Of a stretch of 40,134 nucleotides of DNA, positions 21,088-27,807 are shown in pieces. The stretch is from UHGV virus genome UHGV-0210680, one strand, 5' to 3'. This DNA is from a virus. A program made the position numbers and the translations under genes. Below the pieces are notes generated by a model, which saw only the letters and a list, made by a program, of their open reading frames with translations, made no database searches and was not told the origin of the DNA. Numbering within the stretch: the stretch's first letter is position 1; each line of letters opens with the position of its first letter.

Positions 21088-21888
21088 TTAAGCGGCGTCG
21101 GTGAATTCAAATAAAAAACCGGCTTGCGCCGGCTCTCTCATCTTTCTGTCTACCCATGCTGATATCGATGGCGGGTGCACCTTTTCAATAGCAGCGCGAA
21201 GTACAGCTGTACGTGCCAGTTTGTCGGTAATCTCAGGAAATCGCTTCTCTGTCTTCGGTACGTTAACAGCAACATTAGTAGAATCCGCACTGGCGAACGG
21301 ATACATACCAAGAACTCTCACGTCGAGCATTCGAAGACCATGAATTTTCACTTTCAAATTACGATTGATATAAAGCTCAGTGAAAACTTCATCCATTCTC
21401 TGTTCCCACCATTTAGAGCGTATGTGCCTGTGTGGGCCGCAGCATCCAATCGCCACCCATTCAAATTTGCCAGAAAGGCGTAAAAGACGTTCAATTGATT
21501 CGTCGGTATGCCAGACAGGAACCGCTTTTGATTTTAGCCAATCAGGAACCAACTCAATCTGCTCGTCGTTTTCTGCCTCTGTCCCTTCGATAACGTCAGG
21601 TATAAGAAACCATTCAATTCTGCTGAACCACTTCCCAACAAAGTCGTAGAATTTTGCTCGTCTCTTACTCCAGTCTACCGGGGTGCCTTTCTTTAATGCT
21701 TTCATCCAGTCGCTAAAAGCACCGTTATCAAGGCGTATATCACAAGGGAACATGGCAATCTTTTTCATCTGCTCTGGTCTGGCAAATGAAACAAAAGCCC
21801 CACCATCACGGTAAAGGGCTTTAATCAGCATATCTGTAGGGGCATGCTCATCCCCCCATATTGGGCTGCCGTGAAAGTGGATGGTCAT
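21088..21888 (-). CDS. hypothetical protein (largest ORF of the early-accessory region)
   Basis: 266-aa ORF with no family recognised by eye; contains a conserved-looking His/Cys segment (AIGCCGPHRH). Confidence 0.5.
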   Translation of the reverse strand: MTIHFHGSPIWGDEHAPTDMLIKALYRDGGAFVSFARPEQMKKIAMFPCDIRLDNGAFSDWMKALKKGTPVDWSKRRAKFYDFVGKWFSRIEWFLIPDVIEGTEAENDEQIELVPDWLKSKAVPVWHTDESIERLLRLSGKFEWVAIGCCGPHRHIRSKWWEQRMDEVFTELYINRNLKVKIHGLRMLDVRVLGMYPFASADSTNVAVNVPKTEKRFPEITDKLARTAVLRAAIEKVHPPSISAWVDRKMREPAQAGFLFEFTDAA

Positions 21889-22016: not shown

Positions 22017-22298
22017 TCATTTTTCCTCTTTTGGTTTATGAATCTGAATGGTCATGCCGCTTTGAGTGGTGACTACAATGACAGAACCTGGCTGAAGACT
22101 GTTAAGATTGAATGCTTCGTAAAACGAATCCAATGCCAGTGCTTTTTTATTCTTTCGGTTCCACCAACGCCATCCCTTGCTACAGGCTACACTGACAATC
22201 CACTGTCCACTCCTGTAAGCCATATAAAACCAGATGAGCAAAACCTGAAGGAATGCTATCCAGTCAATGATCGTATATTTCGCGAAGGAGTCCATCAC
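22017..22298 (-). CDS. hypothetical small membrane protein
   Basis: 93-aa ORF with a hydrophobic N-terminal segment (IIDWIAFLQVLLIWFYMAY); start overlaps the upstream gene's stop. Confidence 0.4.
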   Translation of the reverse strand: MMDSFAKYTIIDWIAFLQVLLIWFYMAYRSGQWIVSVACSKGWRWWNRKNKKALALDSFYEAFNLNSLQPGSVIVVTTQSGMTIQIHKPKEEK

Positions 22299-22591
22299 TT
22301 CACCTCCTGCGGAGTAGCCTTTACAAGCACTGGTGTAAATCCATCTTCATTAAGGTTATGAATATAGACTTCTGTTCTCCTGCGCTCTTCAACGTTTAAT
22401 ATGGTTTCTGGATCATAAACCCATACTTTCATTCGACTATTCCATGAAGAAATCGCTTCAGATTTAGTTCGTTTTTCTGGTCCTTGGGCACCACATGTGC
22501 ATGACACATAGCGCATTTTCCCTCTGATACTGAATGAGTATCCGATGTTAAGCACAGTGGAACCACAGAATGGGCAGCGATAGAGATTCAT
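22295..22591 (-). CDS. Lar-family restriction alleviation protein (zinc ribbon)
   Basis: N-terminus MNLYRCPFCG...(22 aa)...CTCGAQGP....TKSEAISSWNSR has the Lar/RalR-family signature of two Cys pairs plus the EAI..WN.R motif; C-terminal ~40 aa extension. Confidence 0.6.
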   Translation of the reverse strand: MNLYRCPFCGSTVLNIGYSFSIRGKMRYVSCTCGAQGPEKRTKSEAISSWNSRMKVWVYDPETILNVEERRRTEVYIHNLNEDGFTPVLVKATPQEVK

Positions 22592-23067
22592 AAATCATCC
22601 ACCTTAGGCGCAGCTGAGACAGCAACATTCCAGAACTCAGAAAACATATTGTATGCACCAGATAGATTGGAAGTGGCATACCCTCCAAGCTCACTTCTAA
22701 TCTGAACGGCTCTCATCATTTCCGGCGTTAACTCCTTCGGCACCATAACCCAACCATCCGGAGTTACCGGCACTGGCTTGGCGGTATAAAGCGGTGTTAT
22801 ATCTGCCCGAAAATTACATGCTTTATGCAGCCGCCCCCACCGTTCGACTTCTGCTTTGTCAGAATACATACCAGTGAACGTGTTATATTCACGGTCAATT
22901 TGCGTGAAAGTTATCTTCCACGCCACCGTCTCTGCTTCCAACGATGCCAGTGCAATCCGTGCCAGTTCTTCCGCTTCTTCTGCTGGCAGTACAACGTTGC
23001 TACCAGGTCCGTATGTTTCGCGCCACTGCTGGATTGTCAGTAGGCGTTCTTTGGTAATAGTGATCAT
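22588..23067 (-). CDS. hypothetical protein
   Basis: 159-aa ORF translationally coupled (4-nt overlaps) to its neighbours in the leftward early operon. Confidence 0.45.
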   Translation of the reverse strand: MITITKERLLTIQQWRETYGPGSNVVLPAEEAEELARIALASLEAETVAWKITFTQIDREYNTFTGMYSDKAEVERWGRLHKACNFRADITPLYTAKPVPVTPDGWVMVPKELTPEMMRAVQIRSELGGYATSNLSGAYNMFSEFWNVAVSAAPKVDDL

Positions 23068-23579
23068 GCTGCGTTTCCTTCTTTCTTATTAACAATTACA
23101 CCGTCATATATTTCATTAAGGTGCCCTCTCAACTCCATGCGCCTTAATGCAGATAACATGTAATCGCATTCAACCTGCTTATTTCCAGTAAATGGCTTAT
23201 CGTCAGGATTACTCCAACAGCAATTACCCTTGGGCCACCCATGTACTTTCCGTACTCTTCCGTTAACAACGTGAAGTAATCCCCAGCCAGGTGGTAAATC
23301 CTCAATTGAAATAATTCCCGGCTCACTAATAAAGAATCGCCAGTCGCCCATTCCAAGAGACGGATTTTTACGAAAACGCTTTTTTCTATCTGCCAACAAG
23401 TCAGCACGAGAACACTTCGCCTCTATCAGGCATGATGCTGAATTTCTGAATCCCATAGCATCTGGCTGTTCTCCGGTACTGGTTACAGCTATAAAGCGGT
23501 CATGAAAACAAACCTTGAACCCGTTGCGCTTAAGGAACTTGTACGCAATCTGACAGAGTTCGCAGTGTGTTAACGCCAT
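23064..23579 (-). CDS. hypothetical protein, possible PD-(D/E)xK-type nuclease
   Basis: 171 aa from the ATG at 23579 (MALTHCELCQ...); contains a D...(17 aa)...E-A-K arrangement (FHD...CLIEAK) reminiscent of a PD-(D/E)xK core. Weak, motif-level only. Confidence 0.4.
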   Translation of the reverse strand: MALTHCELCQIAYKFLKRNGFKVCFHDRFIAVTSTGEQPDAMGFRNSASCLIEAKCSRADLLADRKKRFRKNPSLGMGDWRFFISEPGIISIEDLPPGWGLLHVVNGRVRKVHGWPKGNCCWSNPDDKPFTGNKQVECDYMLSALRRMELRGHLNEIYDGVIVNKKEGNAA

Positions 23580-23580
23580 A

Positions 23581-24015
23581 TCACTCTCCTTTGATGCGAA
23601 TGCCAGTAGCGCGGATTGCATCGATGACTTCAGAAACTTTGTATGCCATTACCGTTTGGTAATCATCGTGAAAATCTGTTCGATGAAGCATGCTGCTACG
23701 TTCCGGGAGCAGTATTTCCCGCACCTCCAGTTCTGCTATGCGCTTTTTTGCTGTTTCCAGCTCGCCCAGCAGCGCTAAGACGGTAGCCGGATTGGCTGCA
23801 GCGATGAATTCAGCATTGGCCTGCTGTTCCATTTGGAAATCTTCATCGAAACCGCTTTCAGGATGCGCTCCTTCAATTCTGCAAATGGGAATATATCCAA
23901 CAACGTCACGATGAATTAGCGCATCATCACAATCAAATCTCTCCTCTCCATATTCGAGCGACCACACCCCCCCACGTTTCTTTTTCTGCCTTTTCACGCA
24001 GTGCCTGATAGTCAA
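23581..24015 (-). CDS. Ead/Ea22-like early protein
   Basis: 144-aa ORF with the NAEFIAAANPATVLALLGELE motif that I associate with the Ead/Ea22-like prophage family; a related motif recurs in ORF 27996..28292. Confidence 0.5.
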   Translation of the reverse strand: MTIRHCVKRQKKKRGGVWSLEYGEERFDCDDALIHRDVVGYIPICRIEGAHPESGFDEDFQMEQQANAEFIAAANPATVLALLGELETAKKRIAELEVREILLPERSSMLHRTDFHDDYQTVMAYKVSEVIDAIRATGIRIKGE

Positions 24016-24026
24016 TCTTGCTCATA

Positions 24027-24347
24027 TCACATCACCCTGAATCCGTTGCATTTACGTAAGAAATCGCAGATGTAGCCCTTCATTTTTTCATGCCAATCTC
24101 GATCATTCCCATTGCACCAACCATCAGGTGGAGTCCAGTTTTCTATCAGAGCAGCCATTTTCTTTGCTTTCGCCGGAGTAGCTGTTGCGGTATCGCAGTA
24201 ATGACGAGTGTCAACCAACGCATCCATACCATCGATATCAAGTACGCAAAACCATGTGTGATTCGGAATTCCTACAGGTGGTATTTGTTGCCCACGTCGA
24301 CGTTTATCAATAAGATATACACTCACTGCTTGCCTCCTTTGCGCCAC
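24027..24347 (-). CDS. hypothetical protein
   Basis: 106-aa ORF in the leftward early operon; the start is uncertain. Confidence 0.4.
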
Positions 24348-24508
24348 ATCGCATTCAGATATTTGTTTTGATTTACTGATGGAAAAGAATTTCTCTTAAG
24401 CAATTCCTCTCTCGATGGCATTGGCTTTACGCGTTGGCGAATAATCATTTCTGCCGGAAGAATGCCTGGATTGTATGCAAGTCCTCTCATGGTAAATTCC
24501 TCAGTCAT
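24323..24508 (-). CDS. hypothetical small protein
   Basis: An internal ATG ([15 protein letters not shown]...) of ORF 24323..24643 gives a 61-aa product with minimal overlap with the upstream gene; the longer N-terminal extension overlaps ORF 24501..24797 heavily. Confidence 0.3.
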
Positions 24509-24797
24509 TACTGATAGCGCCATAGCGTGAGCGGTAATTACGCAGGCGCGGGTCGATATATTCAGGGAAGTGGGTATATGTGGCTTTGCGGAATGGTCGG
24601 ATTGATGTCTGGTAAATTCGCTCGCGCTCTTCTTTCTCTGCAAGCCATATACAATGGCGAAATTCCTTTTCCTCTTTCGTTTCCTGCGGTAGAGACATTA
24701 TTCGATCGTAGTTTTTTCTGAATTTATCCAGCACTTCCGATACGGAATTGCCGGAACAGCGGCGTGGGTCATCCGCACCATACAGAGGCGCTGGCAT
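24501..24797 (-). CDS. hypothetical protein
   Basis: 98-aa ORF immediately downstream of the SSB-like gene in the same operon. Confidence 0.45.
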
Positions 24798-24820: not shown

Positions 24821-25204
24821 TTAGAAGGGAATTGAATCGTCGTATTCAGGATGATTTTGATGATTGCTACTTTGCTGCTGTTGGCTGTTTCCTGAAGTTG
24901 CAAATCCAATCTTTGCATTCAGTAATTCAAGAGTGATTGATTGACCATTTTGCCCCTGATAAACATCAACCCTGATGTTTTCTCCGGTAATTTCTACAAT
25001 GCCACCTTCAACAAGAACACTACGGTAGTAATCCGCTTGCGCTCCCGGCTTGGCAAATACAACGGCGCTGTAGTTTGTCCATTCTTTCTTTTTTGTCTGG
25101 CGATCGTAATACTGAACGCCAGCACGGATGTTGAATCCGATATTTTCCCCGGCCTGAAACTCTCTTGCGGGCTTGTTTAGTCTTACAGTAATCGAATGTG
25201 CCAT
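24821..25204 (-). CDS. single-stranded DNA-binding protein (phage SSB-like)
   Basis: 127 aa from the ATG at 25204 (overlaps the erf stop as TAATG); beta-rich OB-fold-like core, a Q/S-rich linker and a C-terminal acidic tip ...EYDDSIPF resembling the SSB DDDIPF tail. Confidence 0.65.
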   Translation of the reverse strand: MAHSITVRLNKPAREFQAGENIGFNIRAGVQYYDRQTKKKEWTNYSAVVFAKPGAQADYYRSVLVEGGIVEITGENIRVDVYQGQNGQSITLELLNAKIGFATSGNSQQQQSSNHQNHPEYDDSIPF

Positions 25205-25809
25205 TAAGCAGCCGCTCCTTCTAATTCGTCTCGTCTGATGTTGTAAACGTCCTGCGCTTTGTGCTGCTCCGGTGTGCCTTCGAGCATCTTCCACGCTTTG
25301 GCGAACGCCTGTTTAAGCTCTTCCACGGTGTTTTTCTGCATTGCTGCGTCAGTGAATGCTTTTAGAACCTGTTCAGGTGTAGGTGATGGTTTTGATTGCT
25401 TTGCTGCTGCGTTCTGCTGATGTTTATGCTCGTCTGTATCTGCATCTTTCGCATCATCAATGCCGAATAAACCATTGAGGCAATACTTGCGTGCATAAGA
25501 GCTTGTAGCTCCCGTAACTTGTGCAGAATCCATTCCTTTCTTGCTTTCTTCCTCTCGTGCAAGAGCGGTTGCCGTATGACTGTTTTCGCCATCGGTAATA
25601 GTTGCCGTGGCTTTCACGTAATACCGATCACCAATCAACACAACTTCATCGCTGATTGATAAAAACAGGCCATTCAGTAACGGCTTAACGCCTTCAAGAA
25701 TGTCTTCGCAGCTTCTGTATTTATATTTGCCGAATGAGTTGTACTGATTCTTTGGCGCGTTCAGATTCTCCTGAATAGCTGCCAGTCTTGCGTAAAATTC
25801 TTTGCTCAT
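25204..25809 (-). CDS. erf: Erf single-strand annealing recombinase
   Basis: From the ATG at 25809: MSKEFYARLAAIQENLNAPKNQYNSFGKYKYRSCEDILEGVKPLL.GLFLSISDE.VLIGDRYYVKATATITDGENSH... is near-identical to P22 Erf as recalled. Confidence 0.9.
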   Translation of the reverse strand: MSKEFYARLAAIQENLNAPKNQYNSFGKYKYRSCEDILEGVKPLLNGLFLSISDEVVLIGDRYYVKATATITDGENSHTATALAREEESKKGMDSAQVTGATSSYARKYCLNGLFGIDDAKDADTDEHKHQQNAAAKQSKPSPTPEQVLKAFTDAAMQKNTVEELKQAFAKAWKMLEGTPEQHKAQDVYNIRRDELEGAAA

Positions 25810-25910
25810 ATGATTGTTCTCAGAATGGACACGGCCCAAGGAAATAACGCTGATTTAATACTTCGACTCGTGACAAATTAAGGCATACCCGCATTCCTTC
25901 GCGGTCACCA

Positions 25911-26358: not shown

Positions 26359-27327
26359 TTAGTAGGTTATTTTTGTTGCGAATACTTCGCCTTTTACGAT
26401 GGCTGTTATGATATTTTTAGCAACATCTTCTGATGCACCAACCTTGATAAGGTCAGCAAGTATTTTGTTATTTACTTCTTTCCGGTGAGCTTTATCCTTT
26501 GCTCTACGCTCTTCTTCTTCCTTGATTCTTTTTTCTTCTGCTATTCTGGCTTGCTCTTTTGCTTCAGCCTCGCGCCGGATTCGTTCAGCCTCCTCCTGTG
26601 CTTTTCGGCGTTCTGCTTCAATTGCCGCCTGCTTTTCTCTTTCAGCTCGTTCTGCTGCCTCTTTTGCTTCGCGCTGTGCTCGTTTCTCGGCTTCAATGCG
26701 TTCACGCTCTGCACGTTCCGCTGCGGCCTTAGCTTCTGCTTCTCGCCTTGCTGCTGCTTCAATTTCGGCTTTTGCCTTTGCTTCTGCTTCTGCTCTGGCT
26801 CTCTCTTCAGCTTCTCTTTTTAAGCGTTCTTCATGCTCTCGCTTTTCCCGCTCCGCTTTGAGTCTTGCCTCTTCTCTTTGGCGGTCAAATTCGCGATCCA
26901 TCAAAATCGCTATTTCATGGTCAGACTCAATTTGCTTTGCGAGAGCTTCAGCTGCTGCCTTAGCTTCTTCTTCGGATTTAATCCGCGCCTGTTCTTCCTC
27001 ATAATCAGTAAGAGGCTGGCGCGCCTTGGCTTTCAGTTCATCAAGGCGATCGCGCACTGTCTTGCGGTTGGCATCAATTAGCTTTGGAATTTCCTTCAGT
27101 TCAGCAACAAGGTCTTTGCCAAGACCATCGAGATATGTTTTCGTCTGCGCAACTTTATACGCCAGAGAAGCGATCTCCTTTCTGCCCTTTGCCGTTGTGA
27201 TATCAGGCACAAAGGACATAACTTCACGTTCAACCTTTTGAAGGATTTCTTCAATCTGGTCGGCAGACTGAAATACAGTCATTGCATTTGCTTTTTCAAT
27301 AACAACTAAATCTGTTACTTCACTCAT
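26359..27327 (-). CDS. hypothetical protein with long E/R/K/A-rich helical (coiled-coil or single alpha-helix) region
   Basis: 322-aa ORF: a globular N-terminal ~110 aa, then ~170 aa made almost only of E, A, R, K (EAERRA/AEAKA-type repeats), then a ~40-aa C-terminal domain. Lies in the pL operon where lambda carries ea10. Confidence 0.6.
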   Translation of the reverse strand: MSEVTDLVVIEKANAMTVFQSADQIEEILQKVEREVMSFVPDITTAKGRKEIASLAYKVAQTKTYLDGLGKDLVAELKEIPKLIDANRKTVRDRLDELKAKARQPLTDYEEEQARIKSEEEAKAAAEALAKQIESDHEIAILMDREFDRQREEARLKAEREKREHEERLKREAEERARAEAEAKAKAEIEAAARREAEAKAAAERAERERIEAEKRAQREAKEAAERAEREKQAAIEAERRKAQEEAERIRREAEAKEQARIAEEKRIKEEEERRAKDKAHRKEVNNKILADLIKVGASEDVAKNIITAIVKGEVFATKITY

Positions 27328-27362: not shown

Positions 27363-27674
27363 TCAGGCTGCTGAGGTTTCTTCTTTCAGGCTTTCGATAT
27401 ATTTACGTGGGTCGTCGTAACATTGGCATTCGCTGTACCAATCTACCCAGCGATCCGTAAGCTCCATCTCTGATAAATCTTCATCAGTAAGGCTCTCATC
27501 CCACATCTCAAGGCCGTTAGCATTGCAGTAGTCAGGCTTGATGTTGTTGTCATACTGAAAGGCATCATAATCAGCCAGTGCATCCATCAGGCGAACACCC
27601 TCTTCAACACTTGCCACTTCTACAATGAACGGCTTCATAGGTACTTGCGGGATATGCCAGACACGTAATTTCAT
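27363..27674 (-). CDS. hypothetical acidic protein
   Basis: 103-aa ORF in the pL operon with a good coding appearance; no family recognised. Confidence 0.45.
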   Translation of the reverse strand: MKLRVWHIPQVPMKPFIVEVASVEEGVRLMDALADYDAFQYDNNIKPDYCNANGLEMWDESLTDEDLSEMELTDRWVDWYSECQCYDDPRKYIESLKEETSAA

Positions 27675-27807
27675 ATATCCTCCGTCAAAAAAATGCCCTC
27701 ACACTGGAGGGCAAAGAAGATTTCCAATAATCAGAACAAGTCGGCTCCTGTTTAGTTACGAGCGACATTGCTCCGTGTATTCACTCGTTGGAATGAATAC
27801 ACAGTGC

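Follow-up and report, generated by a model that had tools for sequence, protein, structure and literature searches.

An intact member of the phi80 Agt/Mog, D3 gp53 and Sf6 gp33 family in virus genome UHGV-0210680, and its linkage to phage recombination genes

What does a phage early-operon gene do when the central part of its product is built from little more than glutamate, alanine, arginine and lysine (E/A/R/K)? The question is raised by the UHGV virus genome UHGV-0210680, a stretch of 40,134 nucleotides that is here called the window. The gene lies in the early left (pL) operon at 26359..27327 on the minus strand, is complete, starts with ATG and encodes a product of 322 amino acids (aa); the open reading frame (ORF) listing shows the copy to be intact and agrees in position, strand and length with a preliminary description made from the sequence alone. 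We found that the protein is a member of the phi80 Agt/Mog, D3 gp53 and Sf6 gp33 family (PHROG 1376), that members of this family share conserved terminal domains on either side of a segment with the sequence signature of a single alpha-helix, and that their genes are linked to phage recombination genes.

The gene shares 98–99% nucleotide identity over its full length with genes in 35 phage records, and at least 37 sequenced phages carry it. Phages with a near-identical copy include Sf6, HK544, mEp043, mEp213, mEp234, IME10, CUS-3 and several Stx1a phages, and the window gene is the orthologue of gene 33 of Shigella phage Sf6 (approximately 98% identity). It was also found in 530 of 5,426 complete Escherichia coli genomes (approximately 10%). 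The protein matched PHROG 1376 over its full length (E = 6e-109); two further PHROGs that were matched represent split versions of the gene, and all three are labelled as being of unknown function. When the first 150 residues were used as the query, relatives were returned from Klebsiella, Citrobacter, Enterobacter, Aeromonas, Pseudomonas, Acinetobacter and Bradyrhizobium. An exhaustive search with a profile of the N-terminal domain returned 5,689 clusters at 50% identity, 1,842 of them at E <= 1e-30, and members of this family are typically 330–370 aa long.

Alignments of the family revealed a conserved helical domain at the N-terminus, approximately 115–130 aa long in the family and corresponding to aa 1–115 in the window protein (26983..27327, minus strand). 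Its invariant residues include R49, K63, G70, K71, R88, L95 and P105, and the pattern VPDxTTxKGRxxIASxAxKV...GK...PKxID..R...PLT.WE is present in the window protein. In the central region, composition is conserved while sequence and length are not. A conserved mini-domain (aa 282–322; 26362..26484, minus strand) follows at the C-terminus. Its motif, H-[RK]-x-x-[IV]-N ... G ... A-K ... I-x-x-G-x-[IV]-P-x-x-x-I-x-Y, recurs in phi80 Agt and D3 Orf53. The mini-domain could also be aligned with 32 further family members, and the motif was present in 113 of the 179 family sequences examined. Among 179 members, the longest charged segment (at least 80% E/K/R/A/D/Q) had a median length of 162 aa and ended approximately 39 aa before the C-terminus. 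An N-terminal and a small C-terminal domain flanking the helix had been proposed in the preliminary description, and its division into approximately 110 and 40 residues coincides with the blocks that are conserved in the alignments.

Sequence and profile searches of the PDB returned only compositional or weak matches, a Foldseek comparison with viral predicted structures returned family members only, and Pfam scans of 18 relatives of the N-terminal domain gave only sub-threshold matches to helical families. A profile of the C-terminal 52 aa (26362–26520, minus strand) matched UBA domains weakly (LATS2, E = 0.014), and matches to RuvA domain III (E = 0.33–1.1) were sub-threshold but recurrent. 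RuvA domain III is a RuvB-binding module. We treat this weak likeness of the C-terminal domain to UBA and RuvA domain III as a lead and not as a finding.

The charged segment had been described as approximately 170 residues of E/R/K/A. This was a fair estimate, as a threshold of at least 80% E/K/R/A delimits residues 109–288 (180 aa). Within it, composition, charge spacing and AlphaFold2 modelling point to an ER/K-type single alpha-helix at residues 145–288 (26464..26895, minus strand). These 144 residues are 85% E/A/R/K (42 E, 35 A, 29 R and 17 K) with a net charge of +2, and hydrophobic residues account for only about 5% of each 20-aa block over residues 161–260. Opposite charges are paired at spacing i,i+4 in 56 cases, compared with 27.4 +/- 4.0 in shuffled sequences of the same composition (z = 7.2), and there is no excess at spacings of 1–3 or 5–7 in the same residues. 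The i,i+4 signature extends to the family, with z > 3 in 88% of 160 members and a median net charge per residue of approximately -0.04.

The low hydrophobic occupancy of heptad positions a and d, which in the best register is 0.12–0.25 over residues 148–260, led us to reject a canonical coiled coil and to prefer a single alpha-helix. With alanine counted as a core residue the occupancy is 0.25–0.75. Alanine makes up 24% of the segment and has an i,i+4 periodicity, and some packing along an alanine face of the helix may occur. AlphaFold2 with a shallow alignment returned one continuous helix over residues 81–295, with a predicted local distance difference test score (pLDDT) above 90 over residues 131–230. 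A separate model of the N-terminal 135 residues, built with an alignment of 113 sequences, had a pLDDT of 91.5 and placed two short helices against a helix that starts at residue 46 and extends to residue 134. From these helix extents, a continuous helical rod of 215–250 residues, or 32–37 nm, is predicted; residues 145–288 would span approximately 21 nm if fully helical. The sequence statistics favour an ER/K single alpha-helix over a coiled coil, and the helix is continuous in the AlphaFold2 model of the monomer. Of the two options left standing in the preliminary description, the single helix is thus the one supported by the charge pairing and the model, while the a/d occupancy speaks against the coiled coil.

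The genomic neighbourhood of the family was examined in 193 loci from phage records, IMG/VR and bacterial contigs (one genome per species). The loci were reduced to representatives with less than 80% identity in the N-terminal domain, and neighbouring genes were identified with profiles that were built from the loci themselves and searched iteratively. Synteny was counted in the 48 non-redundant loci that had at least 3 kb of flanking sequence on each side. In 33 of the 48, a gene for a strand-annealing protein lies within 1.5 kb on the same strand, and in 19 of these 33 it lies within 100 bp. The annealing proteins belong to different families (Erf in 20 loci, RecT in 8, Sak4 in 3 and a Rad52-like protein in 2). 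Some gene of a recombination module is found within 1.5 kb in 43 of the 48 loci. Set against a rough chance expectation of approximately 7.5%, the linkage counted in the 48 loci has p ~3e-26. Genes for single-stranded DNA-binding protein (SSB) are also frequent neighbours.

The gene orders illustrate how the partners vary: orf53-erf-exonuclease in D3, gp65-erf-exonuclease in JBD44, agt-gamL-recT-exo in phi80, and erf, one further gene and then the family gene in a Vibrio phage. In Pseudomonas, Vibrio, Aeromonas and alpha- and beta-proteobacterial prophages, the linkage is to recombination genes and not to exclusion genes. As the linkage outlasts changes of both recombinase family and host class, it argues for a functional tie between the family and the recombination module.

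Functional notes are available for two homologues. In the record of phi80 (Lula; JX871397), PHI80_40 is annotated as 'agt, anti-toxin for Gam; Mog (modifier of Gam)', and the gene after it, gamL, as an inhibitor of host RecBCD and SbcCD that is 'toxic without Mog'. The second homologue is Orf53 (gp53) of Pseudomonas phage D3, of which JBD44 gp65 is a near twin; the Sf6 record also notes a similarity to 'phage D3 gene Orf53'. The sole route by which D3 escapes the Gabija defence is deletion of a block in which three redundant 'licensing factors' are encoded, namely Exo-Erf, orf53 and orf66 (Hong et al. 2025, bioRxiv, PMC12407980). On its own, orf53 restores Gabija targeting in trans, including targeting of an unrelated phage and of a cos plasmid, and the escape of D3 from Gabija needs RecBCD (PMC12407980). 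In the model of Hong et al., factors that keep RecBCD off linear DNA ends make the DNA a substrate for Gabija (PMC12407980). The deletions reported from experimental evolution of Sf6 have no bearing on the gene, as they are located in the nin region.

These observations lead us to propose, with a probability of roughly 45%, an accessory role for the protein in the phage recombination module, with its end domains tethered by a stiff helix and an effect on the access of RecBCD or on the activity of the phage's own RecBCD inhibitor. The protein would be expressed from pL after N antitermination. Its two end domains would bind different partners, which could be DNA ends or recombination intermediates, or alternatively recombination or anti-RecBCD proteins, and the helix would act as a spacer or tether between them. 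The net effect would be either to keep host end processing of the RecBCD type off linear phage DNA or to modulate the RecBCD inhibitor of the phage. RecBCD and Gabija enter this proposal by way of the homologues; the tethering of partners, the exclusion of RecBCD and the applicability of both to this phage are our inference.

Several points weigh against this proposal. None of the family members has a known biochemical activity, the function given for phi80 Agt/Mog comes from a GenBank note, and the work of Hong et al. stops short of a mode of action for gp53 and of any binding to DNA ends or to RecBCD (PMC12407980). Approximately 10% of the 48 loci have no recognisable recombination gene nearby. 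Neither GamL nor lambda Gam was found in the window, where the sole match was marginal (E = 0.009) and fell inside an unrelated ORF of 159 aa. Finally, the gene is dispensable, at least under some conditions, since 9 of 42 close relatives are disrupted and the gene is split in several isolated phages that are viable.

In the window, the order of the pL operon is N, ral, orf98, orf62, gp17, the 322-aa gene, cIII, kil, two small ORFs, erf, an SSB-like ORF and abc2, followed by genes for DUF7739 and Ead/Ea22 proteins and more genes. The location of the 322-aa gene between cIII and ral had been given correctly. The nearest gene of the recombination module is erf (25204..25839, minus strand; Pfam ERF, E = 2.4e-44), approximately 0.5 kb downstream in the shared operon, and abc2, which encodes an anti-RecBCD protein, is at 24501..24797 on the minus strand (Pfam Anti-RecBCD_p2, E = 4.3e-62). 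Between them on the same strand is an ORF of 127 aa (24821-25204) that had no Pfam match at E <= 0.01 and ends in DDSIPF. An acidic tail of this type is typical of bacterial SSB, and the ORF is probably the gene of a divergent phage SSB whose tail is borrowed from the SSB of the host.

On its upstream side, the 322-aa gene adjoins a superinfection-exclusion gene of the P22 gp17 type (27363-27674, minus strand; Pfam GP17, E = 2e-55). Just upstream of gp17 is a strong hairpin resembling an intrinsic terminator (27694..27713, minus strand), with a 7-bp stem that includes 5 GC pairs and is followed by a run of seven T. In the Sf6 record, the terminator tL2A is annotated just upstream of gene 33, and the position of the hairpin is equivalent to that of tL2 in lambda and Sf6. 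The location of this terminator-like hairpin upstream of both gp17 and the 322-aa gene implies that their expression would depend on N antitermination. Besides Ral, the operon includes minus-strand genes for Lar-type restriction-alleviation, Ead/Ea22-like and DUF7739 proteins (22295-22591, 23581-24015 and 24027-24347, respectively), and for the neighbours at 21088-21888, 22588-23067 and 23064-23621 there was no match in Pfam.

The linkage data could also be read as those of a mediator or scaffold that loads or organises Erf, RecT or Sak4, together with SSB, on single-stranded DNA, independently of RecBCD. The nearest and most frequent neighbour is indeed a strand-annealing protein, often no more than 100 bp away and drawn from four families, SSB genes are common in the vicinity, and the modules that the C-terminal profile weakly resembles, UBA and RuvA domain III, are protein-interaction modules. 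However, one conserved C-terminal domain would then have to serve four unrelated recombinase folds, and those profile matches are all sub-threshold (E >= 0.014). In D3, moreover, Exo-Erf and gp53 are independent, redundant factors in Gabija licensing and do not behave as one unit. We consider a role confined to annealing unlikely.

A dedicated antitoxin or modifier that tempers the phage's own anti-RecBCD protein, and has no other role, is what the phi80 annotation describes, and in the window the protein tempered would be Abc2 and not GamL. The window protein resembles Agt over its full length (50% identity), agt is immediately upstream of gamL, and the order of family gene, GamL gene and recT recurs in a second locus (L071); in both representative loci with GamL (L071 and L085, which is phi80), GamL is directly between the family gene and recT. 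An anti-RecBCD gene, abc2, is also present in the window operon. However, GamL homologues are rare, with only 17 ORFs among the 193 loci, and most family members adjoin genes for Erf, RecT or an exonuclease without GamL. D3 gp53 works alone in trans, without D3 Gam. As GamL is rare and absent from the window, and gp53 acts alone, an antitoxin function specific to Gam is not general, and with no GamL in the window it cannot apply here. Tempering of Abc2 as the sole role of the protein appears decidedly improbable.

On a third view, the gene would be a low-complexity ORF without function, or one in decay, in this phage lineage. Of the 42 close relatives that are full-length, 33 are intact and code for exactly 322 aa, and 9 are frameshifted by at least five independent events (loci L002, L005, L010, L037-L041 and L055 are among those affected). 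At the same loci, copies of the neighbouring genes cIII, kil, erf, abc2, ssb, ral, gp17 and orf98 are disrupted in only 1 of 149 cases. The difference is significant by Fisher's exact test (p = 5e-6, or p = 0.002 when only independent events are counted). The gene is split in the isolated, viable phages CUS-3, Huey, Louie, CurroJimenez and phiv205-1. A programmed frameshift was rejected as the explanation, as the change in CUS-3, one inserted T, does not fall in a slippery run, and the remaining disruptions are due to different indels. One disrupting indel sits in an A-run, and some of the single-base indels could be assembly errors.

In-frame variants also occur. In a form of 245 aa, 77 residues of the repeat region have been lost between repeated AAAE(R/A) stretches, and in a Klebsiella form of 221 aa the ER/K helix is almost absent. 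Length variants with near-identical N-terminal domains are P0015, P0026 (245 aa), P0059 (221 aa) and P0121 (333 aa). It follows from these natural variants that the length of the helix is not strictly constrained. An E. coli ORF of 111 aa (P0060) is a chimera in which the first 80 residues of a family protein are fused to the C-terminus of Abc2, which implies a natural deletion of the cIII, kil, erf and ssb genes between the two. The frameshifts and shortened forms could be taken as signs of decay, but 33 of the 42 copies are intact at full length, the window copy is intact, and conservation of the N- and C-terminal domains extends over thousands of clusters from several proteobacterial classes. 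Frequent disruption is compatible with relaxed selection and also with selection that has repeatedly favoured loss, as it might where the gene triggers a defence, and the latter explains the losses equally well. We regard a functionless ORF as very improbable.

The names attached to the gene in databases suggest yet other functions. Apart from hypothetical protein, they include 'TolA', 'cell envelope biogenesis protein', 'coiled-coil domain-containing protein' and 'antitoxin protein'. Family members have also been named as tail-fibre protein, fibrinogen-binding protein, ribosome recycling factor, IgA protease autotransporter, colicin import protein and integrase, and these many spurious names are due to the low-complexity helix. 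Whole-protein scans of Pfam, NCBIfam and PADLOC returned nothing above noise. A TolA identity was rejected, as the score against TIGR02794 was 8.8 bits (E = 0.84) compared with a cut-off of 59.45 and no Pfam TolA domain was present. A membrane anchor was not found at the N-terminus, where the first 20 residues (MSEVTDLVVIEKANAMTVFQ) include four charged residues and no long hydrophobic run. Judged from sequence, the 'TolA' label is an artefact of composition, with the resemblance confined to the charged helix, and membership of TolA is largely refuted. That the gene encodes an envelope protein like TolA, or a moron for exclusion or host killing without a role in DNA metabolism, is hardly credible, as the many 'TolA' and 'cell envelope biogenesis protein' records, the adjoining gp17-type exclusion gene and the nearby kil are outweighed by the profile scores, the charged N-terminus and a conserved linkage to recombination genes and not to exclusion genes. 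The host-interaction or exclusion role that the preliminary description had drawn from a position like that of lambda ea10 is not favoured by the evidence: the linkage is to the recombination module, and the notes on homologues concern RecBCD and DNA ends.

The composition of the gene also marks the DNA itself. Purines make up 65–83% of the coding strand over nucleotides 421–840 of the gene (approximately 420 nt), and the AT skew of the plus strand falls to -0.78 over the gene, in agreement with the purine-rich coding strand noted earlier. On the plus strand, several shadow ORFs are open over the gene, among them one of 112 aa (26485-26823) and one of 160 aa (26522-27004). The ORF listing gives low-complexity translations rich in S/A/R/F/L/C for them, and this bears out the earlier view that they are by-products of composition. 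We rejected a gene on the plus strand, since conservation of the minus-strand frame extends from Enterobacteria to Pseudomonas, Vibrio and alpha- and beta-proteobacteria.

The window carries an ordinary, intact copy of a gene that has already been catalogued, and its novelty is low. The interest, which is moderate, lies in the family: the gene is common, being found in approximately 10% of complete E. coli genomes and in thousands of clusters from Proteobacteria, it is routinely mislabelled 'TolA', and the mechanism of the family is now a testable question. A recent survey of lambdoid recombination modules, which includes a section on other possible early-left proteins, neither mentions nor describes the family protein. 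If the protein is an accessory that affects RecBCD access, it would add a missing component to models of the lambdoid recombination module, would suggest one route by which Gabija and related defences could recognise these phages, and would provide a natural case in which an ER/K helix serves such a phage protein as its spacer. A bolder extension, which we consider doubtful, is that the family constitutes an unrecognised class of phage factors that act at DNA ends or interfere with RecBCD, with the ER/K helix as a molecular ruler between a head that binds ends or partners and a small protein-interaction tail. Prophages with the gene, present in approximately 10% of E. coli genomes, would then be visible to Gabija-type defences, and the frameshifts would represent escape.

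Comparison with known systems places the window protein closest to those of phi80 and D3. Phi80 Agt is also 322 aa long and can be aligned end to end with the window protein (E = 3e-63). The two share the N-terminal domain, an ER/K helix with common runs such as AEIEAAARREAE, and the C-terminal motif, and in both phages the gene belongs to the pL operon and comes shortly before the recombination module. However, the identity in the N-terminal domain is only 42%, and the genes that follow differ: gamL, recT and exo in phi80, compared with cIII and kil and then erf, the SSB-like ORF and abc2, without GamL, in the window. The N-terminal domain of D3 Orf53 is more similar (55% identity, E = 1e-37), and Orf53 has a charged helix of 185 aa and a C-terminal motif (...HKKAINN...AKQAITLIAQRKVPHITINY), with its gene directly upstream of erf. 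It differs from the window protein in having approximately 60 additional, less-charged residues between the N-terminal domain and the ER/K helix. D3 also infects a different host, and its partners are Erf and a YqaJ exonuclease, with no Abc2.

Two further comparisons concern the helix. The window protein shares with TolA domain II a long helical segment rich in Ala, Lys and Glu, which has drawn the automatic annotation, but it has neither the N-terminal membrane anchor nor the C-terminal domain of TolA. ER/K single alpha-helix (SAH) domains include the lever extensions of myosin VI and X and the helix of caldesmon. SAH domains resemble the window segment in being E/R/K-rich, poor in hydrophobic residues and net neutral, with an i,i+4 excess and an uninterrupted predicted helix. 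The window segment differs from them in being unusually rich in alanine (24%) and in its setting, which is that of phage DNA metabolism.

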